From: Nitrospirota bacterium | GTDB taxonomy: Bacteria; Nitrospirota; Thermodesulfovibrionia; Thermodesulfovibrionales; Dissulfurispiraceae | Reading direction: 5' to 3' | DNA length: 64,000 nt | Assembly: GCA_040754455.1 (NCBI GenBank) | Contig: JBFMCP010000007.1 | Coordinates: forward strand, 1-64,000 | In this document: positions 14,391-57,957 of the stretch, piece after piece | Numbering within the stretch: the first letter of the stretch is position 1 | Layout: the number at the start of each line of letters is the position of its first letter | The notes under the pieces: generated by a model | Seen by the model: the letters and a program-made list of their open reading frames with translations, nothing else | Told to the model about the DNA's origin: nothing | Database searches by the model: none | Made by a program: the position numbers and the translations under genes

Positions 14391-14480
14391 CCCTAAGTTC
14401 GAAATCCTGAATCCTAAACAAATCCAAATGATCAAAATTCAAAATGTGTTTAGAATTTCGTGCTTAGAATTTAGGATTTC
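14391..14480. repeat. Palindromic heptamer-repeat element (TCCTAAA-type unit); overlaps the bioF stop
   Basis: CCCTAAG TTCGAAA TCCTGAA TCCTAAA ... TTTAGAA TTTCGTG CTTAGAA TTTAGGA. Confidence 0.75.
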
Positions 14481-15631
14481 ATTACAGCCGCTAGTGCTTC
14501 CAGCAGCGTATCGATATCGCTCTCGGTGTGCGCAGCGGAAACCGTGATCCTTATTCGCGGGGTTTCGACGGTCGGAGGCCTTATGGCAGGCGCATAGATA
14601 TGCTTTCCTTTGAGGCGTTCCGCAGCAGTAAGCGTCTCTTCCACACCCCCCACGATAACCGGAACGATCGGCGTCGCGCTGTTCAGGGTGTCGAGCCCCA
14701 ATGCGGTAATCCCTTTCAAGAGCCGCTCACGGTTGCTCCAGAGTCTCTTTACTAGGGAGGGATCTTTTTGAATGATCTCCAATGAGGCCAGTGATGCGGC
14801 TGCGGCGGCAGCGGGGAGGGCAGTGGAGAAGATGAACCCCCGGCAGGCATTCATGAGCCAATCAATGGTTGTTCTATCAGCGACGACGAAGGCGCCGAAT
14901 GAGCCGAGCGCCTTTGAGCAGGTTCCCATCTGGATGATCCGCGACTCCGGCATCAGAGAAAAATGCGCGAGGGCGCCTCTCCCTGCGCCCAACACGCCGG
15001 TGCCGTGAGCATCATCGATGTAGAGCAGTGCATCGTACTCGCAGCAGAGGTCATACAACTCTTTCAGCGGGGCGATATCACCATCCATGCTGAACACCGT
15101 ATCGGTGACGACGACATTTCTCCTTCCCTTCTCGCGCTGCATCAATGCCGAAAGGTGATCTGTGTCTTTATGACGATAGATAACCGTTTTCGCCCGGCTC
15201 AGCCGACAGCCGTCGATGATGCTCGCATGATTCAGGGCATCGCTGAAGATGACTGCACCCTCTCCGGCGATGGCGGGGAGGATGCTGGTATTTGCGGCAT
15301 AGCCGGAGTTGAAGAGCAGTGCAGCCTCTGACCCTTTAAATACAGCGAGCCTTTGTTCCAATTCCCGGTGGAGTGCTGTTCCTCCTGACAGCAGACGTGA
15401 TGCACCGGACCCAAAGCCGTAGGTGTCGATTGCACGCTTAGCAGTCTCCCTTACGGCGTCGTGACCCGCGAGGCCGAGGTAATCGTTGGAAGCAAAGTTG
15501 ATATATTCCTGCCCGGCAATGCAAATGCGCGATAAGGCCGTACTGTTATTACCGCAGGAGGGCATGGTGCGATCATTGATTACCCTCAGCAGATGCTCCA
15601 GTCGCAATCGCTCGAGCTCATCACGAAACAT
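14471..15631 (-). CDS. bioF: 8-amino-7-oxononanoate synthase
   Basis: FASNDYLGL, GSGASRLLSG, NHASIIDG, FSMDGD, DDAHG, TCSKALG. Confidence 0.93.
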   Translation of the reverse strand: MFRDELERLRLEHLLRVINDRTMPSCGNNSTALSRICIAGQEYINFASNDYLGLAGHDAVRETAKRAIDTYGFGSGASRLLSGGTALHRELEQRLAVFKGSEAALLFNSGYAANTSILPAIAGEGAVIFSDALNHASIIDGCRLSRAKTVIYRHKDTDHLSALMQREKGRRNVVVTDTVFSMDGDIAPLKELYDLCCEYDALLYIDDAHGTGVLGAGRGALAHFSLMPESRIIQMGTCSKALGSFGAFVVADRTTIDWLMNACRGFIFSTALPAAAAAASLASLEIIQKDPSLVKRLWSNRERLLKGITALGLDTLNSATPIVPVIVGGVEETLTAAERLKGKHIYAPAIRPPTVETPRIRITVSAAHTESDIDTLLEALAAVMKS

Positions 15632-15723
15632 AGTTTTTCATCTCCTAACGGCCCTAGATGTTGTGTTCTTTAAGGAGGAGGGCCACATAATATTGAGCGC
15701 TTTTGAAAGATTTAAATTTTTTC

Positions 15724-15790
15724 TTGACAATGGCGATAACGAAACCATATCATCAGGTGGTAAAAAGTGGGAGAAAGTGGAGGAGGGTGT
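15724..15790 (+). promoter_or_regulatory. dcw promoter with MraZ-binding repeats
   Basis: TTGACA (15724-15729), TATCAT (15748-15753), and GTGG repeats with 10-nt period at 15757, 15767 and 15777. Confidence 0.85.
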
Positions 15791-15794
15791 AGCA

Positions 15795-16250
15795 ATGTCG
15801 TCTTTTTTGGGTAAATACTATTATTCATTAGATCCCAAGGGAAGGCTCATCATCCCAGCTCCTTTACGCGATATCATTTTCAAGAAATACAACAATTCCA
15901 AACTATATATCACGAATGCGGCTTTTGACAAGTGCCTCCATATCTATCCGCTCGAAGAGTGGAACAGGCTGGAGGAGAAAATACGCACGATACCCAAGAT
16001 GGAAGAGGCGGTGAAGTATTTCCTCCGGCGGGTTGTCGCCTCTGTCCTTGAGTGCGAGATCGACAAACAGGGCAGGGTCCTCATCCCTGCACCGCACCGG
16101 GAGGACGCAGGTATAACGAGCGATGTGGTTATTGTAGGGCAGCTGGACAAGATTGAGTTGTGGGACAGGAAAGAGTGGGATGCAGTAACCGATCCCAAGA
16201 AGGTCGACGCAAAGGCATACGAATCGGTGCTTGCCGGTTACGGCTTATGA
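15795..16250 (+). CDS. mraZ: dcw cluster transcriptional regulator
   Basis: LDPKGRLIIP and IDKQGRVLIP repeats; first gene of the cluster. Confidence 0.95.
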   Translation: MSSFLGKYYYSLDPKGRLIIPAPLRDIIFKKYNNSKLYITNAAFDKCLHIYPLEEWNRLEEKIRTIPKMEEAVKYFLRRVVASVLECEIDKQGRVLIPAPHREDAGITSDVVIVGQLDKIELWDRKEWDAVTDPKKVDAKAYESVLAGYGL

Positions 16251-16255
16251 CACGC

Positions 16256-16306
16256 TCACTGTTCACCGTTCGTCGTTGATAGTCAGTGGACAATGAACAG
16301 TGAACG
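16256..16306. repeat. Palindromic heptamer-repeat element (TCACTGT-type unit) containing the rsmH start codon
   Basis: TCACTGT TCACCGT TCGTCGT ... CAGTGGA CAATGAA CAGTGAA; TCACTGTTCA / TGAACAGTGA arms. Confidence 0.75.
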
Positions 16307-17174
16307 GCTTCATGTTCCGGTTTTGGTGAGAGAGACGACGGAGATGCTCATGGTCAAGGAAGACGGAATCTATGTCGATGCAACGGTAGGGCTCGGGGGG
16401 CACGCTGCAGAAATCCTCTCGATGCTCGGTCCGGGGGGGGCATTTATCGGTATTGACCGCGATCCACAGGCCCTTGACTATGCACGGGAGCGACTCGGCA
16501 ACAGCCGGGTGCGTCTCGTACAGGGGAGCTTCTCTCGTTTGGAAGAAATTCTTGCCTCGCAGGACATCGAAGCAATCGACGGCATTGTCTTCGACCTCGG
16601 CGTCTCGATGCTCCAGCTGAAACAGCATGAGCGCGGCTTCAGCTTTTTGTCAGAGGAACGACTGGATATGAGAATGGATCCCTCCCAGGAGTTGTCGGCA
16701 TGGGAGGTGGTGAACCGCTATTCCGAAAAGGAACTGGAAAGGATTCTGAAAGAGTACGGCGAAGAGCCCAAAGCAAAGAGAATCGCCCGCGCTATTGTCG
16801 ATCGCCGCAGGAAGGCGCCGCTTACGACGGGTGCTGAACTTGCTGTGCTCGTCATGAGTGTTTACGGGGGGAGGGGGAAAACCCATCCCGCCACGAGGAC
16901 GTTCCAGGCATTGCGGATAGAGGTGAACAGGGAGCTGGATGAATTGAAGAGCGGCCTCCTTGCAGCGCTGGGTGTGCTGAAGACAGGAGGCAGGATGTGC
17001 GTCATTTCCTATCACTCTCTCGAAGACAGAATGGTAAAAAATTTCATCAGAGAGCAGGCGAGGGAGGGTAAGGTGAAGATGCTGACAAAAAAGCCGGTGA
17101 CTCCCAGTGCCGGCGAGATGAGAAGTAATCCTTCGTCGAGAAGTGCAAAGTTGAGGGGGGCTGAAAAACTATGA
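16293..17174 (+). CDS. rsmH: 16S rRNA m4C1402 methyltransferase
   Basis: HVPVL, DATVGLGGHA, DLGVS, LDMRMD, HPATRTFQALRI, SYHSLEDR. Confidence 0.97.
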   Translation: MNSERLHVPVLVRETTEMLMVKEDGIYVDATVGLGGHAAEILSMLGPGGAFIGIDRDPQALDYARERLGNSRVRLVQGSFSRLEEILASQDIEAIDGIVFDLGVSMLQLKQHERGFSFLSEERLDMRMDPSQELSAWEVVNRYSEKELERILKEYGEEPKAKRIARAIVDRRRKAPLTTGAELAVLVMSVYGGRGKTHPATRTFQALRIEVNRELDELKSGLLAALGVLKTGGRMCVISYHSLEDRMVKNFIREQAREGKVKMLTKKPVTPSAGEMRSNPSSRSAKLRGAEKL

Positions 17175-17506
17175 GGTGCAGGAGAAGGAGCTGGTTCGTA
17201 GGTGTTCTGAAGCCGTTGTCGATCGTGCTGCTGCTCTTTATGATTTTTACCATCGTGTGGCTGCGATCGAGCGTTGTATCGCTCGAGTACCGGCTCAGTT
17301 CGCTTGAGAAGAAGAAAGTGGAACTGGCGAGAGACCGGAAACTGCTTCTGGCGGAACGTTCGAATCTCCTCGCCATCGGGAGGCTCGAAAACACTGCTGC
17401 CGGATCAGGCTTTGCCTTTCCCGACAGGATGAGGGTGGTGTATGTGAAGAAGGGCAGCGATAGCGATACGTATAAGGCATCGCTTCTGGCGAAGAGGGAG
17501 CACTGA
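17171..17506 (+). CDS. ftsL: Cell division protein FtsL-like
   Basis: Short basic N-terminus, single TM, leucine-zipper coil; sits between rsmH and ftsI. Confidence 0.75.
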   Translation: MRCRRRSWFVGVLKPLSIVLLLFMIFTIVWLRSSVVSLEYRLSSLEKKKVELARDRKLLLAERSNLLAIGRLENTAAGSGFAFPDRMRVVYVKKGSDSDTYKASLLAKREH

Positions 17507-17520
17507 CAGGAGGAGAGGGC

Positions 17521-19221
17521 ATGGGGAAGAGGCCGATCATTCTGAGTGCGGTCATCGCGTGCGGCTTTATTGCCGTCGTGCTTCGTCTCGTCGACATCAT
17601 GCTTCTCAACCATCAGTGGTTCTTGGCAAAGGCGAAGGGACAGCAGACGAAAAGGGAGGCGGTCCCGGTAAAGCGCGGTATCATCATGGACCGAAGAGGG
17701 CGGGAGCTTGCGGTGAACCTGGAGACTGAGTCGATCTATTGCGATCCTGCCGAGGTCGTAAAGCCTGATGCGGTCGCTGCTGCGTTGTCGGCGACGATCA
17801 ACAAGAGGCCGGAAGTCATCCTTGCGAAATTCGACGGAAAAGGCAGGTTCGACTGGATCGAGCGAAAGGTGAGCATCGAGGATGCCAAAAGAATAAAAGA
17901 GTTGAAGCTGAAGGGGATCGGATTCGTTCCCGATGCGAAGCGCTTCTATCCGAAGGGCAACCTTGCCTCGCATATCATCGGCTATGTCGATATCGACAAC
18001 AAGGGTCTTGAAGGCATAGAGCAAAAGTATGAGAAATATCTTTCCGCACGGGGAGAAATGGTCTCGGTCGTCAGGGATGCACGGGGAAATGTCCTCTCCG
18101 AGGGGCTGAGCAAAGAGATAAGGGGAAACAACGTTGTCCTCACCATTGATGAGGGCCTGCAGTATATCGTCGAGAAAAACCTTGACGAGGCGATGGAGCA
18201 CTGGAGAGCGGCTTCGGCGACAGCAATCATGATGGATCCCTTTACGGGCGAGATACTGGCAATGGCGAGCAAGCCGGACTTTGATCTCAATAACTCCGCG
18301 GGGGTGCATGCCGCAGAGCGGAGGAACCGGGCGATCACGGATTGCTATGAGCCGGGCTCAACGTTTAAAATAGTAGTCGGCACTGCGGCGATTGAAGAAG
18401 GGATCGTAACCCCCGGCACCAAGTTCGATTGCAGCGCCGGTTTTATCGAGGTAGGCGGCAGAAAGATCAAGGATGCCCATCGGCACGGCGTCCTGACCTT
18501 CAAAGAAGTAATTCAGAAGTCTTCCAATGTAGGTTCCATCAAGGTCGGCCTCAATCTCGGCAGAGAGAAAGTCTACCAGTACATTAAACGGTTCGGGTTC
18601 GGTGAGAGGACCGGCATCGACCTTACCGGAGAGGTTTCGGGATGGATACGGACCCCTGATCGGTGGTCGGGGATGTCTATCGGCGCTATCTCTATCGGAC
18701 AGGAGGTCGCGGTGACGCCGCTGCAGGTGCTGCGCGCTTATGCCGTCATTGCCAACGGTGGCTTTCTGGTAAAACCTTATGTGGTCTCCGAGATCAGGTC
18801 CCATTCGGGAGGTCTCCTTCATAAAACGGCCCCGGAGAAGCAGAGGATCATATCGGAAAAAACGATTGCGACATTCAGAAATATTCTTAAAACCGTTACC
18901 GAAGAGGGCGGCACCGCGACCGGCGCCGCGGTCGACGGCAACGAAGTGGCGGGTAAGACAGGAACCGCTCAGTTGATGGATCCGAGGACAAAGCGGTATT
19001 CAAAGGATAAATTTGTGAGCTCCTTTGTGGGGTTTGTGCCTGCCAACGATCCGCGCCTCGCAATGATCGTTGTTATCCATGAGCCTAAGGGTGCCCATTA
19101 CGGCGGCGTGGTCGCAGGCCCGATATTCAAAAAGATCGCCAGCGAATCGCTCTCGTACCTCAGCGTCCCGAGGGACGATTCGGAGGAGAAGCGGTTGCTG
19201 CTGGTTTCGAGCAATAACTAG
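17521..19221 (+). CDS. ftsI: Peptidoglycan D,D-transpeptidase PBP3
   Basis: YEPGSTFK, KSSNVG, GKTGTAQ; no PASTA domain. Confidence 0.95.
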   Translation: MGKRPIILSAVIACGFIAVVLRLVDIMLLNHQWFLAKAKGQQTKREAVPVKRGIIMDRRGRELAVNLETESIYCDPAEVVKPDAVAAALSATINKRPEVILAKFDGKGRFDWIERKVSIEDAKRIKELKLKGIGFVPDAKRFYPKGNLASHIIGYVDIDNKGLEGIEQKYEKYLSARGEMVSVVRDARGNVLSEGLSKEIRGNNVVLTIDEGLQYIVEKNLDEAMEHWRAASATAIMMDPFTGEILAMASKPDFDLNNSAGVHAAERRNRAITDCYEPGSTFKIVVGTAAIEEGIVTPGTKFDCSAGFIEVGGRKIKDAHRHGVLTFKEVIQKSSNVGSIKVGLNLGREKVYQYIKRFGFGERTGIDLTGEVSGWIRTPDRWSGMSIGAISIGQEVAVTPLQVLRAYAVIANGGFLVKPYVVSEIRSHSGGLLHKTAPEKQRIISEKTIATFRNILKTVTEEGGTATGAAVDGNEVAGKTGTAQLMDPRTKRYSKDKFVSSFVGFVPANDPRLAMIVVIHEPKGAHYGGVVAGPIFKKIASESLSYLSVPRDDSEEKRLLLVSSNN

Positions 19222-19241
19222 TGGAGCTTGGATGAGGTAGG

Positions 19242-20948
19242 ATGCATACGATAAAGCTGAACAAAATGCTCAGAGACGACTTCGAGGTGCAGGGCGATCC
19301 CGAGCGTGCGATATCGGGCGTGGCCTACGATTCGCGCTCGATTAAAGGCGGCGAGGTGTTTGTCGCCATGAAAGGAGAAAAGTGTGACGGCAAGGACTTC
19401 ATCGAAGACGCGATCAGGAGAGGAGCTGCCGCAATCGTCTATGAAAGGGGTGCTGCAGTTACCGCTCTTCGGGCAAGGCATCCTGAGGTCACCTGGATCG
19501 CTGCTGATAACCCTCGCGACGCGATCGCCTATCTGGCCCATACCTTTTACCGGAGACCCTCGGAGAGCATCGGGGTCATCGGCATAACCGGCACCAACGG
19601 CAAGACGACGACGACCTATCTGATCAAGTCCATCCTGGAGCAGTGGAAGAAGAGTGTCGGCCTGATCGGTACGATCAGCTATCTGGTCAAGGCCAAAGTG
19701 TATGATGCTCCCCATACGACGCCGGAATCGACCGACTTTCAGGGACTGCTGCGGACGATGGCGGACCACGGGTGCGATTACGTGGTCACGGAGGTCTCAT
19801 CGCACGCCTTGGCACAGCGAAGGGTCGAGTATACCCGCTTCAGAGGAGCGGTCTTTACCAATCTGACCAGAGACCACCTCGATTTTCACAAGACGATGGA
19901 TAGCTATTTCAAGGCAAAGCAGCGGCTCTTTACCGACCTGCTCGACGAGCAGGGATTTGCCGTCATCAACGGTGATGATGAGTACGGTCAGCGGCTTATC
20001 AAAATGTTGACGGAGAGGAAAGGAAAGGCGGCTCGCGTTGTTTCCTATGCAGTTGAGCACCGCGATGCCGATGTGGCTGCTTCCGATATCGCGACGACCT
20101 TCAAGGGGATGTCGTTCAAGATCACGTACAAAAGACAAAAGTCAGAAGCTGGGAGTCAGAAGCCAGAAGCTGCCTCAGACGAAATGATCCAAGAGGAGAT
20201 TGTCACTCCCCTCGTAGGGATCATCAACGTATATAACATACTCGCTGCGATCGGCGTAGCGCTATCATTGGACATACCGATTACGGTCATAAAGGAGGGC
20301 ATTGCTATGGCAGAACTCATCAAGGGAAGGTTTGAGAAGGTCGATGTGGGACAGGATTTTCTCGCAATAGTGGATTATGCGCACACGGAAGATGCACTTG
20401 AGCGCCTTTTGCGCACAGCCCGTCAACTCCTTGACGCATATCGTTTTACCGGACGTGCTGAGAAGATGATGAAGGCCAAGGGGACGCGTTTTCCCCTGAC
20501 TTCAGAAAAGGGCAAGGGCAAGATTATTACGGTCATCGGCTGCGGGGGCAACAGAGACAAGGGAAAACGCTCAAAAATGGGCGAAATCGCTTCAAAATTA
20601 AGCGATTTTGTGATCATCACCTCCGACAATCCCCGTTTCGAGGATCCCAAAGCTATTATCAGGGATATAGAAAAAGGAATAAAAGGCGATAATTATATTG
20701 TAATACCTGACAGAAACGTCGCCATCAGCATGGCGGTGGAGCTGGCATCGTCCGGAGATATCGTCATGGTGGCGGGAAAGGGCCATGAGGATTACCAGGA
20801 GATCCAGGGAATACGTCACGCCTTCAGCGACAGGACAGCGCTCGAGAGCGCCATCAAAAGGACGATCAGCAGGCCTGCCTTCGGCGGCGGTACTACCTTT
20901 GACGGGCTCTATTCTTCGAGTACCACAAAAAGGGAGTGTTCCTGTTAG
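19242..20948 (+). CDS. murE: UDP-MurNAc-tripeptide synthetase, with apparent insertions
   Basis: GITGTNGKTT, HTTPES, EVSSHAL, DYAHT, SDNPR (mDAP-type), GKGHEDYQ. Confidence 0.96.
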   Translation: MHTIKLNKMLRDDFEVQGDPERAISGVAYDSRSIKGGEVFVAMKGEKCDGKDFIEDAIRRGAAAIVYERGAAVTALRARHPEVTWIAADNPRDAIAYLAHTFYRRPSESIGVIGITGTNGKTTTTYLIKSILEQWKKSVGLIGTISYLVKAKVYDAPHTTPESTDFQGLLRTMADHGCDYVVTEVSSHALAQRRVEYTRFRGAVFTNLTRDHLDFHKTMDSYFKAKQRLFTDLLDEQGFAVINGDDEYGQRLIKMLTERKGKAARVVSYAVEHRDADVAASDIATTFKGMSFKITYKRQKSEAGSQKPEAASDEMIQEEIVTPLVGIINVYNILAAIGVALSLDIPITVIKEGIAMAELIKGRFEKVDVGQDFLAIVDYAHTEDALERLLRTARQLLDAYRFTGRAEKMMKAKGTRFPLTSEKGKGKIITVIGCGGNRDKGKRSKMGEIASKLSDFVIITSDNPRFEDPKAIIRDIEKGIKGDNYIVIPDRNVAISMAVELASSGDIVMVAGKGHEDYQEIQGIRHAFSDRTALESAIKRTISRPAFGGGTTFDGLYSSSTTKRECSC

Positions 20949-20995
20949 AAGTGCCGGTGATTAGTGACAGTGTCAGAAAAGAAGTGAGGTAGTTG

Positions 20996-22432: not shown

Positions 22433-22436
22433 CGCG

Positions 22437-28608: not shown

Positions 28609-28613
28609 TAAAG

Positions 28614-28690
28614 AAGAATCCAGGAGTCAGGAGCCAGAAGTCAGAATAAAATCTGAGTTGTGCTTTTTTTCTTCTGGATCCTGAATTCTT
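28614..28690. repeat. Palindromic heptamer-repeat element (GTCAGAA-type unit)
   Basis: TCCAGGA GTCAGGA GCCAGAA GTCAGAA ... TTCTGGATCCTGAATTC. Confidence 0.75.
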
Positions 28691-28706
28691 TTTATTGGAG
28701 TGAATT

Positions 28707-31053: not shown

Positions 31054-31103
31054 CAGGGCAATGCCTTTAAAATAGGCACCATGAAAAAGGGGTTGAGGAC
31101 GGG

Positions 31104-31189
31104 AAAGATCAAAAATTAAAGAGCAAAATGAAAAAATAAGGGATCCTTGATTTTTATTTTTGCTTTTCGATCTTTGCTTTTTACTTTTT
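31104..31189. repeat. Palindromic heptamer-repeat element (AGCAAAA-type unit)
   Basis: ATCAAAA ATTAAAG AGCAAAA ... TTTTGCT TTTCGAT CTTTGCT TTTTACT. Confidence 0.7.
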
Positions 31190-31193
31190 ACCG

Positions 31194-31994: not shown

Positions 31995-33261
31995 CTCGTT
32001 TGTCGTCGGACTCGATGTCGGCACTACAAAGATCTGTGCCATCGTCGGCGAGGTGAGCGAGGAAGGATGTTCGATCCTCGCAGTGAGCTCTCATCCCTCG
32101 TCGGGACTCAAGAAGGGGGTTGTCGTCGATATCGAGGCGACGGCCCAATCGATCAAGAAAGTGATCGCCGACATACGCGAGCAGATAGGGTTCGACATCA
32201 GAGAGGTCTACGTCGGCATTGCCGGGAGCCATGTAAAGAGCTTCAACAGCTACGGTGCCGTAGGTATAAAAGGCAGGGAGGTGTCTCCCGAGGATGTGGA
32301 ACGGGCGATCGATTCGGCAAGCGCCGTGTATGTGCCGCTCGACAGGGAGATGCTCCATGTCCTTCCCACCGACTTCATCCTCGACGGACAGGACGGCATC
32401 AAAGACCCTGTGGGCATGGCCGGGGTGCGTCTCGAGGTAAAGGTATACATTGTCACCGGCGCCGTCACCTCGGTGCAGAATCTCCTGAAATGCTGCGAAC
32501 GGGCAGGGCTCGAGGTGGTTGATATCGTGCTCCAGCCGCTGGCTTCTGCAGAGGCGACGCTGACGCCCTATGAACGTGATATGGGCGTAATGCTCGTCGA
32601 TATCGGCGGCGGGACGACGGACATCGCGATCTATAAAGACGGCTGGCTTCGGCATACCGCTGTGCTGGGCATCGGGGGTAATCATTTTACCAACGATCTG
32701 TCGGTGGGGCTGCGGCTGCCCTTCCATGAGGCTGAGAGAGTGAAAAAGAAGTACGGCTTTGTCGCCCCTGTCCCGTATGCTGCCGAGATCAACAGCAACA
32801 ATGCGGAAATAGAAGTAGTGGCGATCGACGGACAGGTGAGGGGAATACCCAGGAAATATATTGCCGAGATCCTGCAGCCGAGAGGAGAAGAGCTCCTTGA
32901 TCTGATACGTCAGGAGGTGCAGATGGTTCATCATAACGGCATTGCGATTGCAGGGGTTATTCTCACCGGAGGCGCCTCGCTGCTCACAGGGTTTGACCGC
33001 ATGGCCGAAGCTATGCTCTCTATGCCGGTCCGGATCGGCTATATGAACGGGGCACCGCACCACCCTGATGTCGCTCCCGAATCGCTGCCCATCAGCGGCC
33101 TGAAGGGGGAATTCAATAACCCGATCTACGCGACGGGTGTCGGGCTGGTGCTGCATGCGGCAGAGACGGTTATGCCTTCCGAACGTGTACCTTCGGATGT
33201 CTTGAGTAGCATTATGACTACCATGACGGGATGGTTCAGGAAAATAATAAGTAAGAAATGA
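31972..33261 (+). CDS. ftsA: Cell division protein FtsA
   Basis: GLDVGTTKI, DIGGGTTD, LTGGAS, YATGVGL, amphipathic C-terminus WFRKII. Confidence 0.96.
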   Translation: MEKRKRTSSFVVGLDVGTTKICAIVGEVSEEGCSILAVSSHPSSGLKKGVVVDIEATAQSIKKVIADIREQIGFDIREVYVGIAGSHVKSFNSYGAVGIKGREVSPEDVERAIDSASAVYVPLDREMLHVLPTDFILDGQDGIKDPVGMAGVRLEVKVYIVTGAVTSVQNLLKCCERAGLEVVDIVLQPLASAEATLTPYERDMGVMLVDIGGGTTDIAIYKDGWLRHTAVLGIGGNHFTNDLSVGLRLPFHEAERVKKKYGFVAPVPYAAEINSNNAEIEVVAIDGQVRGIPRKYIAEILQPRGEELLDLIRQEVQMVHHNGIAIAGVILTGGASLLTGFDRMAEAMLSMPVRIGYMNGAPHHPDVAPESLPISGLKGEFNNPIYATGVGLVLHAAETVMPSERVPSDVLSSIMTTMTGWFRKIISKK

Positions 33262-33264
33262 AAA

Positions 33265-33333
33265 GTGATGAATGATGAGTAAAAGACAAAATATAAAAGG
33301 TATTCTTTTCCATTTACTCATTACTGCTCACTT
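33265..33333. repeat. Palindromic heptamer-repeat element (TGATGAG-type unit)
   Basis: GTGATGA ATGATGA GTAA ... TTACTCA TTACTGC TCAC. Confidence 0.65.
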
Positions 33334-33351
33334 TTACCAAAGGGGGTTGTT

Positions 33352-34641
33352 ATGTTTGAGCTCGAAGATGTAGGCAGATTGGTAGCGAAGATAAAGGTCA
33401 TCGGTGTGGGCGGCGGCGGGGGTAATGCGATCAACAGCATGGTCGCCGCGAACATTTTCGGCATAGAATTTATTGCGGTCAACACCGACAGCCAGCACCT
33501 CGATGTGTCGCTCGCGCCGGTGAGGGTGCAGATCGGTGCGGCATTGACCAGGGGACTGGGCGCAGGATCAAATCCGGTGATCGGCAGGCAGGCCGCTCAT
33601 GAAGACCGGGATGCCCTGATGAGCTCCATTGAAGGCGCCGATATGGTCTTCATCACGGCGGGTATGGGCGGCGGCACCGGCACCGGCGCAGCGCCGGTGA
33701 TTGCGGGGCTTGCACGTGAGCTGGGCATTCTCACAGTCGGCGTGGTGACAAAGCCCTTCTACTATGAAGGCAGAAAGCGGGCGATCAATGCGGAAGACGG
33801 CATCAGAGAGCTCAAGAAGAATGTTGATACGCTGATCGTTATCCCCAACGACCGGATCCATCTCGTGGTCGAGAAGGGGACCCCTCTGCTCAAATCCTTC
33901 TCCATCGCCAATGATGTCCTGCGGCAGGCGATACAGGGTATTTCCGACCTGATCCTTATCCCCGGTCTCATCAACCTCGACTTCGCCGACGTGAAATCCG
34001 TTATGGAGAACGCCGGCAAGGCGGTGATCGGTGTGGGATTCGGCGCTGGTGACAACGGCGCATTCGAGGCGGCGAAGAAGGCGATCTCCAACCCCCTCCT
34101 CGAAGAGTCGTCCATCGAGGGCGCAAAGGGAATCCTTATCAACATCACCGGCGGCATGAACATGTCCCTTGATGCAGTGCAGCAGGCGGCGTCGCTGATT
34201 CATGACTCCGCCCACGATGATGCCAACATCATTCTTGGTGCGGTGATCAATGACGAAATGGAAGACGAGGTAAGGGTCACGGTGATCGCGACCGGACTTG
34301 AGGAACGGTTAGAGAAGGCTGAGCTCCCCCAGATCAAGAAATGGGCTCCCAAGAAGGACCCGATCAATCTCAGGGGGTCCGAGCGGATACTCTCCAAGAG
34401 CATCGGCCTTACCTCACGAGAGCCGGCCTATGAGCCGAAGGTTATTCAGGAGCGTCCTCTTGAAAAGGAGATCGCCGAGCCCTCCGAGCCCATCGCTGCG
34501 AAGACACAAGAGCAGGTCGGCACCAACGGCCAGGGCACGATATTCGAAAGCAAACAGATTCCCCTCAATGAATCTTTTCTGGGGACCGATGATGAGTATG
34601 ATATTCCCACGTTTCTGAGGAAGCAGTCGGGAGCCTCATAA
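33352..34641 (+). CDS. ftsZ: Cell division protein FtsZ
   Basis: [34 protein letters not shown]. Confidence 0.98.
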
Positions 34642-34740
34642 TGAGTAGTGCGTGATGTGTGATGCGTAATGAGTTAAAATTAAGTATGCGTTTCCCCATA
34701 CTGCGGGTCCTCATTACCGGGTACTCATCACGGATTACGG
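34639..34740. repeat. Palindromic heptamer-repeat element (TAATGAG-type unit) starting at the ftsZ stop
   Basis: TAATGAG TAGTGCG TGATGTG TGATGCG TAATGAG ... CTCATTA CCGGGTA CTCATCA CGGATTA. Confidence 0.75.
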
Positions 34741-45750: not shown

Positions 45751-45759
45751 TATCTCTCA

Positions 45760-45845
45760 GTAGTCAGGATCCAGAATCCAGAAGTCAGAATAACAACCAA
45801 AAGAAAAAATTATGTATTCTTCTGGCTTCTGACTTCTGTCTTCTG
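45760..45845. repeat. Palindromic heptamer-repeat element (GTCAGAA-type unit)
   Basis: GTCAGGA TCCAGAA TCCAGAA GTCAGAA ... TTCTGGC TTCTGAC TTCTGTC TTCTG. Confidence 0.8.
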
Positions 45846-45855
45846 TTTGTTGTCG

Positions 45856-47016: not shown

Positions 47017-47037
47017 CTCCCGGTCGTCCTAAAAAGT

Positions 47038-50091: not shown

Positions 50092-50101
50092 AAAGCGGCT
50101 T

Positions 50102-51028: not shown

Positions 51029-51140
51029 AGGGTAATTATACTTGATAACGCATCTGCTGAAAAGAGATGGATGATGTTGATATAATTTGAATAACGAGTA
51101 AGCATTTGCATGTGCAATGCTCATGGCAAAGGAGACCGGC

Positions 51141-52781
51141 ATGGAAAAGCAGCCCCACACGCACACACTGCTGCCTGAGGAGACCAAGAAAGTCCTCCGC
51201 GAGACCTTTAAACAATTGCGCGATAAGGTACTCGTCGAGGTCTTCATGAATGAAGAGAGTACGCCGTTTAACGAGGCTACCGCGGAACTCGTCAAGGGCA
51301 TTGCCGAGCTTGCCGGGAAGATCGAGGTGAAAAGGTATCCATTGAGCAGTGATGCAGCAACGCAGAAAGGGATCACACGCTCTCCGACCATTCTTATCGC
51401 CCCCGACAAATATAAAATAAGATATATCGGCGCTCCTCTTGGCGAGGAGGGACGTACTTTGATCATGGCGCTGCTGCTCGCATCGAACAACGGGACGATC
51501 CTCTCCGAGGGAGCGCTGAAGCGGCTCTTTGAGCTGAAGGAGCAGCGTACGGTCCAGGTTTTTGTCTCTCCTACCTGCCCCTATTGCCCTCAGCAGGCGC
51601 TCAACGCCATTTCCGCAGCAATCGCCCGTCCTGATCTCATCACTGCCGAAGTGATTGAGATGTACGAGAACAGGGACTATATCGAGAAATACCATATCAT
51701 TACCGTACCTTTCACGGTCATCAATGAAGTTGCCATCGGCACGGGCGTCAGACCTCCGGAGCTGTTCGTCGAGGAACTCATCAGCCTCGCTTCTGCCGAG
51801 ATCATGTCTGCAGCGATTTCCGGCGAGGTGGTCGATATGGATGTCGTGATTGTCGGCGGAGGTCCCGGCGGACTGACCGCCGGAATCTATACAGGGAGGA
51901 GCGGGCTCAAGACCGCGGTGCTGGAAAAGGCGACCGTGGGGGGGCAGGTGCTTATTACTCCCATCGTCGAAAACTATCCCGGCTATACCCAGATCGCAGG
52001 CAAGGCGCTGGTGGACATCATGTACCAGCAGGCATTGCTGTATACCTATATCTTCGAGGGAGAGAGTGTGCTTGCCGCAAAAAAAGTCGATGGTATCTTC
52101 GAGGTCAGAACGAACAGAAGGATCTACCGGACCAGGGCGATCATCATTGTCACCGGAGCAGAGCATAAGAAGCTGGAGGTACCCGGCGAAGATACTCTCT
52201 ACGGAAGAGGGGTGAGCTACTGTGCTACCTGTGACGGCTATTTCTTCAAGGACGGCAAAAAGGTCATTGTTGTCGGCGGCGGCAATACCGCCGTGACAGA
52301 CGCCCTCTATTTGCACAGCATCGGAGCCGACGTCACTCTGGTGCACCGGCGCGACAAGCTGAGGGCCGAGGCCTTTCTCCAGAAGAGTATTGCTGATAGA
52401 GCTATCACTGTGCTGTGGAATACGTTGGTAACGGAAATCATGGGCACGGGGGGGGTCGAGCGCGTAAAGCTCAAGAACGTAAAGGACGGCAGCGTAACGG
52501 AGATGCCTGTTGATGGTGTTTTCATCGCGATCGGCTATGCGCCGAACAATGAGATCGCCAAAATGCTCGGACTCGCTCTCGATGAAGAGGGATATATAAA
52601 GGTCGACGGCAAACAGCGGACCTCGGAAAGAATGGTCTACGCTGCCGGCGACGTGACCGGCGGCGTCAAGCAGATTGCCACTGCCGTAGGGCAGGCGACG
52701 GTTGCCGCGATGACGGCTTTTGAGGAGCTGTCGAGCTCTCCTGAAAAGGAGAAAAAGGATGCATGGTGGGCGGGTCCTTAA
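51141..52781 (+). CDS. AhpF-like fusion of protein-disulfide oxidoreductase and thioredoxin reductase
   Basis: N-terminal thioredoxin folds with CPYC; GGGPGG, SYCATCDG, GGGNTA, HRRDKLRA, AAGDV. Confidence 0.9.
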   Translation: MEKQPHTHTLLPEETKKVLRETFKQLRDKVLVEVFMNEESTPFNEATAELVKGIAELAGKIEVKRYPLSSDAATQKGITRSPTILIAPDKYKIRYIGAPLGEEGRTLIMALLLASNNGTILSEGALKRLFELKEQRTVQVFVSPTCPYCPQQALNAISAAIARPDLITAEVIEMYENRDYIEKYHIITVPFTVINEVAIGTGVRPPELFVEELISLASAEIMSAAISGEVVDMDVVIVGGGPGGLTAGIYTGRSGLKTAVLEKATVGGQVLITPIVENYPGYTQIAGKALVDIMYQQALLYTYIFEGESVLAAKKVDGIFEVRTNRRIYRTRAIIIVTGAEHKKLEVPGEDTLYGRGVSYCATCDGYFFKDGKKVIVVGGGNTAVTDALYLHSIGADVTLVHRRDKLRAEAFLQKSIADRAITVLWNTLVTEIMGTGGVERVKLKNVKDGSVTEMPVDGVFIAIGYAPNNEIAKMLGLALDEEGYIKVDGKQRTSERMVYAAGDVTGGVKQIATAVGQATVAAMTAFEELSSSPEKEKKDAWWAGP

Positions 52782-52928
52782 TTGAGGAACGTCTTTCACC
52801 TCCATTAAAAGCACCTGATATCAGAATGCGCTTTTCTTTTCCCGCTCATTCCTGCTCATCCTGCTCCCAGCATAAATTTCAAAATAATGTCTAAATTTAT
52901 AAATCCCGAAATAATTTTTGCGAATCCC

Positions 52929-52974
52929 TTGACAAAGGTTTTTTTATCCGATATCATGTAAGTGAATATTCACT
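52929..52974 (+). promoter_or_regulatory. Promoter and TetR operator
   Basis: TTGACA-N17-TATCAT followed by the perfect palindrome AGTGAATATTCACT (52961-52974). Confidence 0.8.
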
Positions 52975-52988
52975 ATCAAGGGGTTTTA

Positions 52989-53603
52989 TTGAAAAAGGTA
53001 TCAAAACCAATAGGCAAAATGCCAAGAGAGGTAAGGCGTACACAGATCGCCGAGGCTGCGCTCAGGATCATCGCCCGCCAGGGAGTAAGGGCCCTCACTA
53101 CTTCAGCGATAGCGCAGGAAGTCGGCATATCCGAGGCAAACCTCTATCGTCACTTCAGGAATAAAGATGAGATCCTCTCCGAGATGGTGGACATGATCGG
53201 TGAGGGGCTCAGAAAGAATTTTGAGAGTGTGTTTAAAACTGATGCTACCCCGATTTCGAAGCTCAAAAAAGTCTTCAGGCTTCACTTGGACTATATAGAG
53301 AAAAACGAAGGAATTCCGCGGCTCGGCTTTTCAGAGGATATGCATTGGGGGAACAGGGAATTGGGAGAGCGGCTCCTCACGAATATCGAAAGGTACGCCG
53401 ACGAGCTCGAAAAGCTTATACAGGAGGGCCAGAAAACAGGTGCACTGAAAAGAGAGCTGGAGCCGCGTACCGCAGCCTTGATGCTTATTGGAATGGTACA
53501 GGTCGTGACCTTTCGATGGTCGTTGAGCGGCTTCTCCTTTCCACTGGTTGCCGAGGGAATGAAAATGTGGGAGAATTTTGAGAGCTGCGTGCGGTTTAAA
53601 TAA
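52989..53603 (+). CDS. TetR/AcrR family regulator; start uncertain
   Basis: TTSAIAQEVGISEANLYRHFRNKDEIL. Confidence 0.93.
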   Translation: MKKVSKPIGKMPREVRRTQIAEAALRIIARQGVRALTTSAIAQEVGISEANLYRHFRNKDEILSEMVDMIGEGLRKNFESVFKTDATPISKLKKVFRLHLDYIEKNEGIPRLGFSEDMHWGNRELGERLLTNIERYADELEKLIQEGQKTGALKRELEPRTAALMLIGMVQVVTFRWSLSGFSFPLVAEGMKMWENFESCVRFK

Positions 53604-53616
53604 TTTTTTGCCGAAG

Positions 53617-53635
53617 ATGTAAGTAAGCGTTCACT
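53617..53635 (+). promoter_or_regulatory. Second, degenerate TetR operator
   Basis: ATGTAAGTAAGCGTTCACT compared with ATGTAAGTGAATATTCACT upstream of tetR. Confidence 0.6.
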
Positions 53636-53648
53636 TTTGGAGGTATAT

Positions 53649-54974
53649 ATGAAAAGAGCTGTACTGATCATCGGGATTATTCTGATTGCACGAGGCGCTT
53701 TTGCAGAAAGTGACAAGATGGACTTTACCCTTTCCGAGGTGATTGATTTCGCCCTCAAGAATAATCCCGGCATCAGGTCATCGCGCAGCGACATCGAGAT
53801 CGAGAACTACGGCATCAAGGCCGCGAAAGCGGCCAAATGGCCGAAAGTCGACCTGAGCAGCGGTGTGACACGCTACCGCTATCCGTCACCGATAACACCG
53901 ATTGCCGGTTCCCCGCTCGCTGGCGCGGCATTCCCCGAGTTCGACAAAACTATCTACGATGCGAGCGTGGTCTTTTCGTTGCCCTTCTACCGGGGCGGAA
54001 GGCTCGACCGGGAGGTGCAGATAGCGGAGTTGCGTCGTGCCATAGCAGAAGACACCTTTCATATGAACCGGCAGGAGCTTATTTATAACCTTACGAGCGT
54101 GTACTACAAAATTTATGAGCTCGAAAAACTCCTTGCGGCGAATGAATCGTCGGTACAGCAGCTGGTAACCCATAAGAAAAATATAGAGCTCTTTCTCGAA
54201 GCTGGCACGGTACCGAGAGTCGATCTCCTGAAGACCGAGGCCGCGCTTGCCCATGCGCAGCAGACAGCCCTTCTTACCAGGAACAGCCTCGCAAGCACGT
54301 ATGAGCTGCTTAAAGCATTGATGGGCATCGAGGATGCGACGAAGAGAATTACTCTTGTCTACGAGCAGCTGGAGTGCGACCGGTATCAGCTACTCGAGGA
54401 TTCCATTGCACAGGCTTTTTTGCAGCGGCCCGACTATAAGGCGGCGCTGAAGCAGCAAAGGATAGCCGAGGAACGGATCAAGCTCGCCCGGGGGAAGAGG
54501 ATCCCTGCAGTGTCACTGAACGGCGAATATAACGAGCGGTCAGGCGAAGACCTCAGCTTCAACGAAAACTGGAATCTCAGCGTGAGAATCACAATGCCGC
54601 TCTTCGACGGCGGCGCGATTACCGCGGAGGTGCACCGGCAGGAAAAAGAACTGGCAAAGAGTGAGGAGGAGATGCGCTTTCTGCGTTTGGCGATCATCCG
54701 CGAGGTCAAGGATGCCTATTTAAACATACAGAGTGCGCAGGAGCGGATCGAGGCGACCCGGAAGGCAATCGATTCGGCACAGGAGACCCTCCGCATCGAG
54801 CGTCTGAAATACGATTCAGGCAAAGGTACGAGCACGGACGTCATCGACGCACAGACCGCTCTGCTCCGGGCGGAAACGGATTACTACCAGGCGCTCTATG
54901 ATAAAGATATTGCTGTGGCCGCATTGCAAAAGGCGATGGGAGAGGAGAGGTACGGAAAGGAGGAAGTACGATGA
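53649..54974 (+). CDS. TolC-family outer membrane efflux protein
   Basis: Signal peptide and two OEP repeats (ALKNNP, PFYRGG, PLFDGG, DVIDAQ). Confidence 0.92.
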   Translation: MKRAVLIIGIILIARGAFAESDKMDFTLSEVIDFALKNNPGIRSSRSDIEIENYGIKAAKAAKWPKVDLSSGVTRYRYPSPITPIAGSPLAGAAFPEFDKTIYDASVVFSLPFYRGGRLDREVQIAELRRAIAEDTFHMNRQELIYNLTSVYYKIYELEKLLAANESSVQQLVTHKKNIELFLEAGTVPRVDLLKTEAALAHAQQTALLTRNSLASTYELLKALMGIEDATKRITLVYEQLECDRYQLLEDSIAQAFLQRPDYKAALKQQRIAEERIKLARGKRIPAVSLNGEYNERSGEDLSFNENWNLSVRITMPLFDGGAITAEVHRQEKELAKSEEEMRFLRLAIIREVKDAYLNIQSAQERIEATRKAIDSAQETLRIERLKYDSGKGTSTDVIDAQTALLRAETDYYQALYDKDIAVAALQKAMGEERYGKEEVR

Positions 54975-55954
54975 AGAAACGGGTGCTTTTCGCAGGCGTT
55001 CTTATCATCATAGGCATTGCCGCCTTCCTGATATATCGCTTTGTCAACAAACCCGAAGAGGGAGTTATTGCCGTTTCCGGGAATGTGGAGGTTACCGAGG
55101 TGAATATGGGCTTCAAGTCATCGGGAAGGGTTGTAGAGCTCCTGGCGGAAGAGGGGGAGAAAGTGAAAAGAGGGGACAGGCTTGCCGTCCTCGACAGTGC
55201 TGAACTCGAAAGCCAGGTGGCGCAGAGCAGGGCCGCACTGAATGAAGCTGCAACAAAGCTGCAGGAACTTAGGGCAGGCTCGCGCCCCCAGGAAATTGCC
55301 CAGGCCCAGGCATCGGTCGCTTCTGCGGAGGCTGAACTGATCAAGGCGAAGAAGGACTACGAACGGGATGAGTTCCTTTACAAGAACGGAGCTGTTTCCG
55401 CGCAGCAGTGGGACGCATCGAAAAAAGTATATGAGACGGCAGTCTCGCAGCACCGGAAGTCGCTCGAATCGCTCAGCCTCGTAAAAGAGGGGCCACGCAG
55501 GGAAGAGATAAGGGCAGCAGAGGACAGGATGCGCCAGGCAGAGGCAGCACTGAGAGCATCTGAAGAAAGATTAAAAGATACCATCATCTCTGCGCCGGTG
55601 TCAGGGGTGGTGTTAAGAAAGAATATCGAACTTGGCGAGACCGTTGCACCCGGGACGCCTGTCTATACCATAGGCGACCTTGAGAATCCATGGATAAAAG
55701 TATATGTGAAAGAGCCCGACCTGGGGCGCGTAAAGCTCGGGCAAAAGGCAGAGATTACGACCGACTCATATCCTGGGAAAATCTATGAGGGCGTCATCTC
55801 CTTCATATCTTCAGAAGCGGAATTCACCCCGAAAAATGTCCAGACGCCGGAGGAGCGGGTGAAGCTCGTTTTTGGCGTGAAGGCGAGCGTGAAGAACGTT
55901 AATAATGAACTGAAACCGGGCATGCCTGCTGATGTGAGGATATTGTTGAGATAG
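54971..55954 (+). CDS. HlyD-family periplasmic adaptor (YbhG-like)
   Basis: ISSEAEFTPKNVQT..ER..LVF, LKPGMPADV. Confidence 0.92.
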   Translation: MKKRVLFAGVLIIIGIAAFLIYRFVNKPEEGVIAVSGNVEVTEVNMGFKSSGRVVELLAEEGEKVKRGDRLAVLDSAELESQVAQSRAALNEAATKLQELRAGSRPQEIAQAQASVASAEAELIKAKKDYERDEFLYKNGAVSAQQWDASKKVYETAVSQHRKSLESLSLVKEGPRREEIRAAEDRMRQAEAALRASEERLKDTIISAPVSGVVLRKNIELGETVAPGTPVYTIGDLENPWIKVYVKEPDLGRVKLGQKAEITTDSYPGKIYEGVISFISSEAEFTPKNVQTPEERVKLVFGVKASVKNVNNELKPGMPADVRILLR

Positions 55955-55984
55955 ATGGGTGCGCCGTAGCAAAGGAGTTTTTGA

Positions 55985-56908
55985 ATGGATTGGTCCATAG
56001 CGATAAAGACGTCAGATCTCACCAGAACCTTTGGTGATATCCTTGCGGTTGATAAGCTCAGTCTCGAAATAAAGAAGGGAGAGCTGTTCGGGCTGGTAGG
56101 ACCTGATGGCGCAGGAAAAACGACGGCAATGAGACTGCTTACTGCAATAATGGAGCCGACATCGGGTGAAGCGTGGGTTGCCGGGCACTCTGTCCTCACG
56201 GAAGGAGAAAGGATCAAGGAAAAGATCGGCTACATGTCGCAGCGGTTCGGGCTCTACGAGGACCTTACCGTCTTCGAAAATATCATCTTCTATGCAGATC
56301 TCTACGAGGTCCCAGAAAAAGAGCGCCCTGCGCGAATTGAGCGGCTCCTCGGCTTCAGCAACCTGACGCCGTTTAAGGGAAGGCTCGCAGGAAAGCTTTC
56401 TGGTGGCATGAAGCAGAAGCTCGGTCTTGCTTGTGCGCTTATCCATACGCCGGAAGTGCTGTTTCTCGACGAGCCGACTAATGGCGTCGACCCGGTATCG
56501 CGAAGGGATTTCTGGAGAATACTCTACGACCTCCTGAAAGAAGGAGTGACGATTCTGGTTTCCACTGCATACCTGGACGAGGCTGAGCGATGCACAAGGA
56601 TTGCTCTTATGCACAAGGGAAAGGTGTTGATTGAAAATACGCCGACAGAGGTGAAAAAATCACTCGGGTTGCCCATGATCGAAGTATGGTCTGATGATGC
56701 CCGTTCGGCGCAGGCGATCGTCAAGGAGATGCGCGGGGTCAAGGGCGTCAGTATGTATGGTGACCGGCTTCATATAACTATCGAGCGAAGAGAAATGGTC
56801 GATGATATCATCGGGAAATTAGCTGATGAGCGAATAGGAGTAAAGGATCACCGAGAAATAGTACCATCCCTTGAGGACGTATTTATTTCGATGGTAGACA
56901 GAGTGTAG
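55985..56908 (+). CDS. ABC-2 exporter ATP-binding protein
   Basis: GPDGAGKTT, LSGGMKQK, LDEPTNGVDP. Confidence 0.93.
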   Translation: MDWSIAIKTSDLTRTFGDILAVDKLSLEIKKGELFGLVGPDGAGKTTAMRLLTAIMEPTSGEAWVAGHSVLTEGERIKEKIGYMSQRFGLYEDLTVFENIIFYADLYEVPEKERPARIERLLGFSNLTPFKGRLAGKLSGGMKQKLGLACALIHTPEVLFLDEPTNGVDPVSRRDFWRILYDLLKEGVTILVSTAYLDEAERCTRIALMHKGKVLIENTPTEVKKSLGLPMIEVWSDDARSAQAIVKEMRGVKGVSMYGDRLHITIERREMVDDIIGKLADERIGVKDHREIVPSLEDVFISMVDRV

Positions 56909-56935
56909 GAAACAGGAAATGAAAGGGTTGCAGCA

Positions 56936-57862
56936 ATGAGAGAGCGCGGTATGGCGGTGGAGATCGCGAACCTGCGTCGCACCTTCGGCGACTTTGTCGC
57001 AGTGGATAACATCAGTCTCAGCGTAAATAAAGGCGAAATTTTCGGGTTTCTCGGTCCCAATGGCGCAGGCAAGTCAACGACGATAAAGATGCTCTGCGGG
57101 CTTTTGGCGCCAACCGGCGGAAGCGGTTTTGTGGGCGGGTACGACATCATGACAGAATCAGAAGAAATAAAGAAGAACATCGGGTATATGTCTCAGAAGT
57201 TCTCTCTTTACGATGATCTTACCGTTGAGGAGAATATAGCTTTTTTCAGCGGAATTTATGGTGTTTCACAGGAGAACAAGAAGGGGCGTACGGCATGGGT
57301 GCTGGAGATGGCAGGGCTTCAGGATAAGAAGAATGCCCTCACCAGGACTCTCCCCGGCGGATTCAAGCAGCGACTTGCCCTCGGCTGCGCTATTCTGCAC
57401 GAGCCGCTCATACTATTCCTCGACGAACCGACATCAGGAGTCGACCCGGTTTCAAGACGGAATTTCTGGAACCTCATCTATGAAATGGCAAAGGCGGGAA
57501 CTACTGTTTTTGTTACCACGCATTATATGGATGAGGCCGACTACTGCGACCGGCTTGCGCTCATCTACAGGGGCAGGATTATCGCAGAAGGCACACCGGA
57601 GGAACTGAGAGAGAACTATATGACACGGGATGTCCTGGAAATAGAGGTCGACAGGCTTGTTGAAGCGATGGATGTGCTTGATGGGCATAAGATTGAGGCG
57701 GCAATCTTTGGAAGCCTGCTCCATGCCACGGTCGAGAATGCCGACTCGACTGAGCAGCGAATACAAACAGTGCTGGAAGAGAAAGGGATAAAGGTCAAGA
57801 GGATCGAAAAGATCGTGCCGTCGCTGGAGGATGTGTTTGTGACGTTGATAGAAACAGCGTGA
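56936..57862 (+). CDS. ABC-2 exporter ATP-binding protein
   Basis: GPNGAGKST, LPGGFKQR, LDEPTSGVDP, TTHYMDEA. Confidence 0.93.
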   Translation: MRERGMAVEIANLRRTFGDFVAVDNISLSVNKGEIFGFLGPNGAGKSTTIKMLCGLLAPTGGSGFVGGYDIMTESEEIKKNIGYMSQKFSLYDDLTVEENIAFFSGIYGVSQENKKGRTAWVLEMAGLQDKKNALTRTLPGGFKQRLALGCAILHEPLILFLDEPTSGVDPVSRRNFWNLIYEMAKAGTTVFVTTHYMDEADYCDRLALIYRGRIIAEGTPEELRENYMTRDVLEIEVDRLVEAMDVLDGHKIEAAIFGSLLHATVENADSTEQRIQTVLEEKGIKVKRIEKIVPSLEDVFVTLIETA

Positions 57863-57870
57863 AAGACCGT

Positions 57871-57957
57871 CATGAGTGAAGAGTGATAGGTACTGAGTAA
57901 AAGGTCAAAGACCTTATTTTGTCCTTTACTGATCACTCATTACTCGTCACTGATTAC
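57871..57957. repeat. Palindromic heptamer-repeat element (TGATGAG-type unit)
   Basis: CATGAG TGAAGAG TGATAGG TACTGAG TAAA ... TTACTGA TCACTCA TTACTCG TCACTGA TTAC. Confidence 0.75.

Follow-up and report, generated by a model that had tools for sequence, protein, structure and literature searches.

The short tandemly repeated repetitive (STRR) sequences of cyanobacteria are direct arrays of one or a few genome-typical heptamers. Repetitive extragenic palindromes (REPs), the paired REPINs with their REP-associated tyrosine transposases (RAYTs), and prokaryotic MITEs (miniature inverted-repeat transposable elements) are short non-coding palindromes at gene 3' ends, present in many copies and specific to lineages. 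To our knowledge, heptamer repeats are over-represented in many bacteria for no known cause, and the S23p, or four-helix-bundle, protein family has no known function. Both are found in the intervening sequence (IVS) in helix 45 of the 23S rRNA of Coxiella burnetii, where, as described, terminal inverted repeats enclose in their loop a PF05635 open reading frame (ORF) for S23p, tandem heptamers in strain-variable number stand 5' of the start codon, and the distribution is sporadic, with mobility proposed and unexplained (PMC4990558). These traits are shared by the system described here, which was found from a 64,000-nucleotide stretch of DNA, the window (positions 1 to 64,000 of contig JBFMCP010000007.1, assembly GCA_040754455.1, a Nitrospirota bacterium of the Dissulfurispiraceae). 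Eight intergenic hairpins in the window, five of them in the division and cell wall (dcw) cluster, are built of tandem words and their reverse complements, and are very probably gene-less forms of a mobile cassette that carries a four-helix-bundle gene between such arms.

An earlier note, made from the letters of the window alone, had listed these eight elements as a few degenerate heptamers, usually a spacer, and the reverse-complement heptamers. All eight are present at the places claimed, with this architecture. The tally itself was incomplete, as a looser scan recovered a ninth element with a word of eight nucleotides. The nine are as follows.

14388..14479, minus strand: gene-less element of the AAATCC(T/G) family at the bioF-gpsA junction; its first arm is the source of the bioF stop.
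16256..16307, plus strand: gene-less element of the TTCAYNG family at the mraZ-rsmH junction, with the rsmH start codon in its second arm.
28610..28692, plus strand: gene-less element of the CAGAAGT family at the murG-murC junction.
31103..31190, plus strand: gene-less element of the AAAAATY family, with a GGA-TCC core, at the ddl-ftsQ junction.
33245..33335, plus strand: gene-less element of TRATGAG words with outer AAGTRAG words at the ftsA-ftsZ junction; the ftsA stop is in its first arm.
34639..34738, plus strand: gene-less element of the TRATGAG/GTGATGC family 3' of ftsZ, whose stop is formed by the element's first word.
45757..45853, minus strand: gene-less element of the CAGAAGT family at the ilvC-psd junction.
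57869..57957, plus strand: gene-less element of the TRATGAG family at an ABC ATPase-permease junction.
12498..12582, no strand assigned: the ninth element, with an 8-nt word and a like design, between convergent genes.

In positional order the eight are flanked by gpsA/bioF, mraZ/rsmH, murG/murC, ddl/ftsQ, ftsA/ftsZ, ftsZ and a radical-SAM gene, psd/ilvC, and ABC ATPase and permease genes, names that follow NCBIfam families, in part below curated cut-offs. Set against 100 dinucleotide shuffles per element, their hairpin folds give z values, in the same order, of -3.9, -3.6, -3.8, -3.1, -3.6, -3.2, -6.9 and -4.1, and folding shows the terminal inverted repeats forming a long stem, as in an ORF-bearing IVS. 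Host codons lie inside the arms, as had been claimed for the bioF stop (14471-14473), the ftsZ stop (34639-34641) and the rsmH start (16293); the ftsA stop (33259-33261) does so too. The elements are not IVSs: all eight sit between protein genes and outside rRNA, Rfam has no match in the window, and a hidden Markov model (HMM) search found no PF05635 ORF in the loop of any of them. Nor are they shown to be MITEs or REPINs.

The filled counterpart of these hairpins is present in the source genome (G000, 3.27 Mb; other G numbers denote relatives' genomes and L numbers extracted loci). TIGR02436 has two hits there, of which one is a PF05635 gene (E 1e-39) in a cassette at G000:C2:182223-182543, between AGCNRTC arms, with a ribosome-binding site (RBS) after the first arm and the stop within the second. 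Among distant arms in G000 this cassette is the only one found to hold cargo, the remaining long pairs being the arms of neighbouring elements. The other hit is a bAvd-like gene (L002, G000:C2:111606-111917, PF22296), which lies between two similar repeats, without paired heptamer arms, in a setting like that of a diversity-generating retroelement. The earlier note had suggested that similar arms flank four-helix-bundle genes in other genomes, and the survey agrees: 158 of 175 PF05635/TIGR02436 loci from G000 and relatives are armed, against 10 of 839 small control genes of G000. By set, the armed loci are 60/65 for the host's family, 81/85 for the class and 17/25 for weaker hits; the family set has 70 loci, five of which gave no hit there and are scored among the weaker hits, and the sets are mostly the best-scoring of 154 and 522 matches, not a random draw.

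A promoterless cassette consists of an arm of about five tandem words of 6-9 nt, an RBS, a PF05635 gene of about 120 residues and the reverse-complement arm. Where the upstream gene lies within 300 nt, its orientation is that of the cassette (41 of 41 cases); the downstream gene agrees in 42 of 46. Words of 6, 7, 8 or 9 nt occur, more than 100 of them unrelated. The word follows the protein: it is common to 133 of 146 protein pairs with at least 70% identity, as opposed to 541 of 10122 pairs at 20-50% (quick alignment), and it tracks the tree of 61 proteins. With a median dN/dS of 0.10 (60 close pairs, non-independent), the protein is under purifying selection; among 251 genomes in the class it is present in 170.

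Each word family of the eight elements has a filled form somewhere. TRATGAG/GTGATGC arms enclose a gene at L075, L103, L106, L199, L227 and L238, CAGAAGT arms at L128, L098 and L114 (L114 by eye), AAGTRAG arms at L265, TTCAYNG arms at L339, L344, L389 and L412, and AAATCC arms at L276, at ispD-ispF in the same-genus genome G001 (by eye); the weakest case is AAAAATY, whose filled form (L258) lacks the core. At L276 (G001:C44:66180-66491) the cassette gene and an upstream ispD-like gene make one open frame of 398 codons through the first arm, a possible fusion. At L118 and L125 (G037 and G002) four-helix-bundle genes are inserted between two genes, which we take to be cas1 and cas2, and the site is empty in G000 and G027. 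Apparent insertions within genes at L083 and L089 were rejected, as paralogous sensor genes stand on both sides; the L089 site was not found in four congeners.

The period-7 signal extends through the genome and lies above controls, as the earlier note had expected: 201 tracts were found at lag 7, against 2 to 43 at each other lag from 4 to 13 (lag 14 gives 120), and three block shuffles gave 1, 4 and 7 lag-7 tracts. A reverse-complement partner within 110 nt exists for 301 of 1105 period-7 seeds and for 8 of 1105 in the reversed-word control; in this seed-pairing scan period 8 shows a small excess (27 vs 4 in the control) and periods 5 and 11 none. Merging the seeds yields at least 191 elements in G000, a lower bound because the strict catalogue takes in only five of the eight window elements. 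The looser scan gives 247 elements, against 38 in its control, and about a dozen candidates with an 8-nt period lie elsewhere in G000. In the strictest pairing scan, which recovers one of the eight, array pairs within 80 nt are inverted in 28 cases and direct in 2. The arms have median lengths of 32 and 31 nt and the loop one of 24 nt. Seven main word families make up most of the elements, with 11 fitting none, and each family has one arm order (46/49, 47/48, 22/23, 17/17, 15/15, 12/14 and 8/9). No two G000 elements reach an identity of 0.85 (best 0.84, median 0.61).

Placement between co-directional genes, as the earlier note had described it, holds for the eight and is no speciality genome-wide. 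By the analysis's own gene calls, and counting gaps of at least 50 nt, elements are found in 145 of the 1230 gaps between co-directional genes, in 24 of the 203 convergent gaps and in 14 of the 313 divergent ones. Since convergent and co-directional gaps are alike and divergent ones are seldom occupied, the anchor is the 3' end of a gene. Among the 145 co-directional elements, the distance from the upstream stop to the left arm is at most 10 nt in 93, and that from the right arm to the downstream start in 36; in 62 the first arm contains the upstream stop. At 43 roomy junctions, 23 elements start within 20 nt of the stop, where 10.3 would be expected. An AGCNRTC-type array also lies in frame inside a gene, presumably hisH from its resemblance (G000:C2:174016-174046), adding a short Gln/Ser-rich insert.

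That nearly all elements stand at gene 3' ends, and that they persist in essential operons, would also suit host-selected mRNA signals for processing, stability or pausing, born locally by slippage and template switching, to which the cassette would be incidental. Slippage is real: in a conspecific strain that shows 221 differences across 19.8 kb, none of the five dcw elements is missing, and there is a single gap, where the rsmH arm has gained two heptamers (14 nt). Heptamers have been described as regulatory in Beggiatoaceae (PMC4679880) and in Nostoc (10.1101/2022.06.06.494920), and in the latter the arrays influence expression. Nevertheless, most relatives have no element at the same junctions, and a few words with a fixed arm order recur across the genome, which is not expected from local invention. 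Folding in the sense strand is scarcely preferred (81 vs 64), and none of 26 terminator-like hits between 14300 and 34000 coincides with the five elements in that range. An origin as mRNA signals is thereby rendered quite improbable, and a secondary effect of the elements on mRNA is possible.

Comparison of the same junctions in relatives, over 80 dcw regions of which the second 40 were picked for high cassette counts, reveals empty, gene-less and gene-filled states, all three of them at ftsA-ftsZ. Together with the armed loci and the armed PF05635 gene of G000, this upholds the central guess of the earlier note, that the elements are remains of a poorly described mobile system. Its wording of 'empty sites' does not stand, as an empty site is a repeat-free junction of -8 to 30 nt and the elements are gene-less derivatives. 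The junction is 30 nt or shorter in 40/53 relatives at mraZ-rsmH, 40/73 at murG-murC, 54/71 at ddl-ftsQ, 53/75 at ftsA-ftsZ and 14/30 after ftsZ. Where relatives do have elements at the window junctions, they mostly use other words than G000. Thus ftsA-ftsZ holds gene-less elements with six other words in six relatives (same-genus G001 included) and a full cassette in G132, murG-murC holds gene-less elements with other words in 6 of 73 relatives, and the gap after ftsZ has a decayed orthologue in G001 (by eye) and other words in G005, G025 and G006; at ddl-ftsQ no element was called in 71 relatives. Filled cassettes at window junctions number none in the first 40 dcw regions and one in the second 40, and upstream of murG in G046 there is one weak hit of another type. 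Twenty cassettes elsewhere have flanks that are adjacent in G000: 15 correspond to junctions of -8 to 83 nt without a called element, four, which among them have three different words, to the locus of the cassette in G000 itself, and one to an element without a gene, built of another word.

One way in which gene-less elements arise is by loss of the ORF where it stands. At a junction between phosphoglucomutase-like and nucleotidyltransferase-like genes in one genus (g6), the cassette is filled in G098 and G026, whereas in G036 the ORF has been cleanly deleted from start codon to stop, the two sharing a few letters. The loops of G006 and G096 retain the first letters of the ORF, and in G000 the junction is empty, its host genes overlapping by 4 nt. 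A further junction is filled in G008 and empty in G037 and G087, and the second arm there is in frame with the next gene.

Some other features of the dcw region were recorded on the way. The gap 3' of mraY (window:23520-23680) may hold decayed arms, and elements are called there in relatives. In L060, L059 and L041 (G009, G028 and G038) a small ORF rich in Cys lies in the gap between ftsZ and the radical-SAM gene; it has about 70 codons and is shortened in G038. MurE (window:19242-20948) has 568 residues; its family models match it in two stretches, pointing to some 80 residues inserted internally. The murC-ddl spacing is 34 nt (window:30075-30108), against some 920-1000 nt in many relatives, where murB probably lies between.

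A second route to gene-less elements is copying without the gene, in either orientation. The AAAAATY family, to which the element at 31103..31190 belongs, occurs with a conserved length and core in 27 of the 251 genomes, from 11 families; relative to the copy, the adjacent stop (22 of 25 loci) is on the left in 11, on the right in 7, on both sides in 1 and on neither in 3. Copies are also nested, as judged by eye, in the loops of other hairpins (L521, L531, L534, L535, L536, L526 and L529), five of which have 8-nt-word arms and two of which are REP-like palindromes. Hairpin loops may be a second target. Such elements have the traits of MITEs in that they are short, non-coding, multi-copy and bounded by terminal inverted repeats.

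Small genes of a second kind are found in comparable settings. An association with GxxExxY genes had been raised in the earlier note and holds in that 20 of 28 loci are armed; the words there are, however, 8-12 nt long and the gene was not found in G000. GxxExxY genes are present in 43 of 201 genomes, and those at L277-L306, between inverted arms of 8-12 nt words, form a parallel cassette system, with 2.5-2.9 repeats per arm at periods 8-12 and about 2.7 overall.

A gene-between-arms design common to two unrelated small-protein families, together with the fixed length and core, the stop on either side and the nesting of the AAAAATY family, is what would be expected if the elements were non-autonomous, like REPINs or MITEs, and were moved by an unlinked arm-reading transposase, both kinds of gene being mere passengers that recognise no arms. 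A single transposase would, however, need to read more than 100 unrelated words, the repeat count varies with the cargo family, and no target duplication was seen. PF01797, the only family searched for an arm-bearing transposase or RAYT in G000, gave one hit, an IS200-type gene that is partial, unarmed and beside another insertion sequence (L073, G000:C46:14982-15281, a partial frame directly 3' of the apparent insertion sequence). Passenger status is accordingly improbable.

The number of words in an arm bears on what the protein might do. With each word counted once, four-helix-bundle arms have 4.83 repeats for 6-nt words (5 words), 4.89 for 7 nt (78), 4.81 for 8 nt (23) and 4.39 for 9 nt (3); counted per locus the value is about 4.5. 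Across these words arm length grows with the period (rho 0.29, p 0.003) while the repeat count stays flat (rho -0.06, p 0.53), and in a control of the detector planted arms of fixed length were recovered without a period bias. Matches of the cassette protein, 2GSC and 2RLD, have five chains each. The title of 2GSC speaks of an assembly of five four-helix bundles, and the structure has been described as a homologue of Avd (PMC10053308); Avd is reported to be a pentameric, RNA-binding barrel with a positive charge (10.1101/2023.10.23.563531). About five words per arm and a homologue of five subunits have therefore led to the proposal that each subunit may read one word, which is the boldest step of the scheme. 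That the protein reads its own arms at all is plausible without being probable.

The protein might instead be a post-transcriptional regulator of the host, with the gene-less hairpins as its operator sites. Its conservation (dN/dS 0.10) and presence in 170 of 251 class genomes would fit a regulator, as would the RNA-binding homologue Avd and the translational role proposed for the Beggiatoaceae heptamers (PMC4679880). The single protein of G000, however, fits only about 14 of the 191 elements, the content of sites turns over between genera with unrelated words, and the position of the gene shifts between close relatives, so that such a regulon is very improbable.

Taken as a whole, a likely explanation is a mobile cassette system with gene-less members. 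The cassette sits directly behind the stop of a host gene, in sense and often at translationally coupled junctions; its arms gain and lose whole words by slippage, and each protein lineage keeps its own word. Upon co-transcription with the host gene, the arms would pair into a long stem and be cut by an RNase III-type enzyme, by analogy with the Coxiella 23S IVS. The pentamer would bind one single-stranded arm, one word to a subunit, and might thereby mark its own cassette and the gene-less copies bearing the same word, and an unlinked enzyme would carry out the strand transfer. Because gene-less copies insert either way, transfer on single-stranded hairpin DNA is favoured, and seems somewhat better than an even prospect; a route via RNA and a reverse transcriptase stays open because the cassette protein is homologous to Avd, and is rather unlikely. 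Between conserved genes the cassette may also spread through homologous recombination of the flanks.

A number of observations weigh against this explanation or parts of it. There has been no recent movement, as seen in the low identity between G000 elements and in the conspecific strain that retains all five dcw elements. In the loops of G000 elements, ribosome-binding and start motifs favour neither strand (GGAG 18 vs 12; ATG 81 vs 80) and HMMs detected no protein remnants, so that for none of the eight is it shown that a filled cassette once stood at its site. None of 30 AAATCC loci is filled and only four of 80 public TTCAYNG loci are, and among filled forms none with the GGA-TCC core was found. 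Against about 190 elements, mostly of other families, G000 has a single intact cassette (AGCNRTC), so that most elements now lack a cognate protein. Stop-codon anchoring may in part reflect selection against inserts that break genes, and co-variation of word and protein is also expected from plain co-inheritance. Pairwise tests of arm length are weak (6 vs 7 nt p 0.09, not significant; 7 vs 8 nt p 0.047, marginal), and in the repeat-count statistics the words are related and not independent samples. By eye, no target-site duplication was seen at three junction sets or 22 copies, whose ends are degenerate and whose relatives are diverged. No transposase, recombinase or reverse transcriptase linked to the cassette was seen in a search that was not systematic.

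A wider scheme, unlikely to hold in all its parts, would make these elements a transposase-free class of mobile element. A small ring protein, a pentamer, would provide the specificity: on a single strand, each of its lineages would read five copies of a 6-9 nt word peculiar to it, and joint divergence of protein and word would have produced more than 100 orthogonal pairs. The complex, like Avd, would recruit an unlinked enzyme, possibly a reverse transcriptase, that places the cassette, or any hairpin of the same word, either behind a stop or inside the loop of a hairpin. One system would then have given rise both to bacterial heptamer repeats and to rRNA IVSs with an ORF, and the GxxExxY cassettes would be a parallel one with a smaller oligomer.

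New from this locus are the deletion series at a single junction, a filled form in a relative at ftsA-ftsZ, one of the junctions of the window, the gene-less lineage that inserts either way, and a constant repeat count specific to the cargo. The data tie heptamer repeats and the S23p family to one cassette. If one subunit does read one word, the family would be a natural set of orthogonal single-strand readers. As the arms rewrite the ends of genes, supplying stops, starts and in-frame tails, annotation of these genomes is affected as well.

No paper connecting periodic inverted arms with four-helix-bundle genes that lie outside rRNA was found; subscription papers and supplements lay mostly outside the coverage, and a published account may exist. 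The GGGAATC repeats of Xanthomonas (PMC4692102) are alike in forming inverted pairs of heptamer arrays (70 and 75 cases per genome) that lie between aligned ORFs and no more than 50 bp from a stop codon. They differ in having a single word per genome, interpreted as a G-quadruplex motif, and the main text of that report, which is silent on four-helix-bundle and IVS genes, finds no overall association with mobile elements. The TAACTGA repeats of Beggiatoaceae (PMC4679880) share intergenic heptamer arrays of 2-6 copies, a patchy occurrence across phyla and a suspected horizontal spread, but in the published description they are direct repeats before start codons, without paired arms or a cassette. 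Avd of diversity-generating retroelements (PMC10053308; 10.1101/2023.10.23.563531) is a homologous four-helix-bundle pentamer that binds structured RNA, but it partners an adjacent reverse transcriptase, and none was seen beside armed cassettes.

With STRRs the G000 elements have in common tandem intergenic heptamers, but not direct arrays of few words, given 28 inverted against 2 direct pairs and at least seven word families. Unlike those of REPs, REPINs and MITEs, the arms are family-specific tandem words, the partner, autonomous in appearance, encodes no known transposase, and no target duplication was seen. The Bacillus protein TRAP is a ring that binds one short repeat per subunit; its fold is unrelated to that of the cassette protein and the likeness is one of analogy only. 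The closest relative among described systems differs in its setting. Cleavage by RNase III has been demonstrated for the Coxiella IVS (PMC4990558) and would only by extension apply to the cassettes, which occupy many sites in mRNA operons behind stops, use more than 100 words of 6-9 nt, and have abundant gene-less forms.

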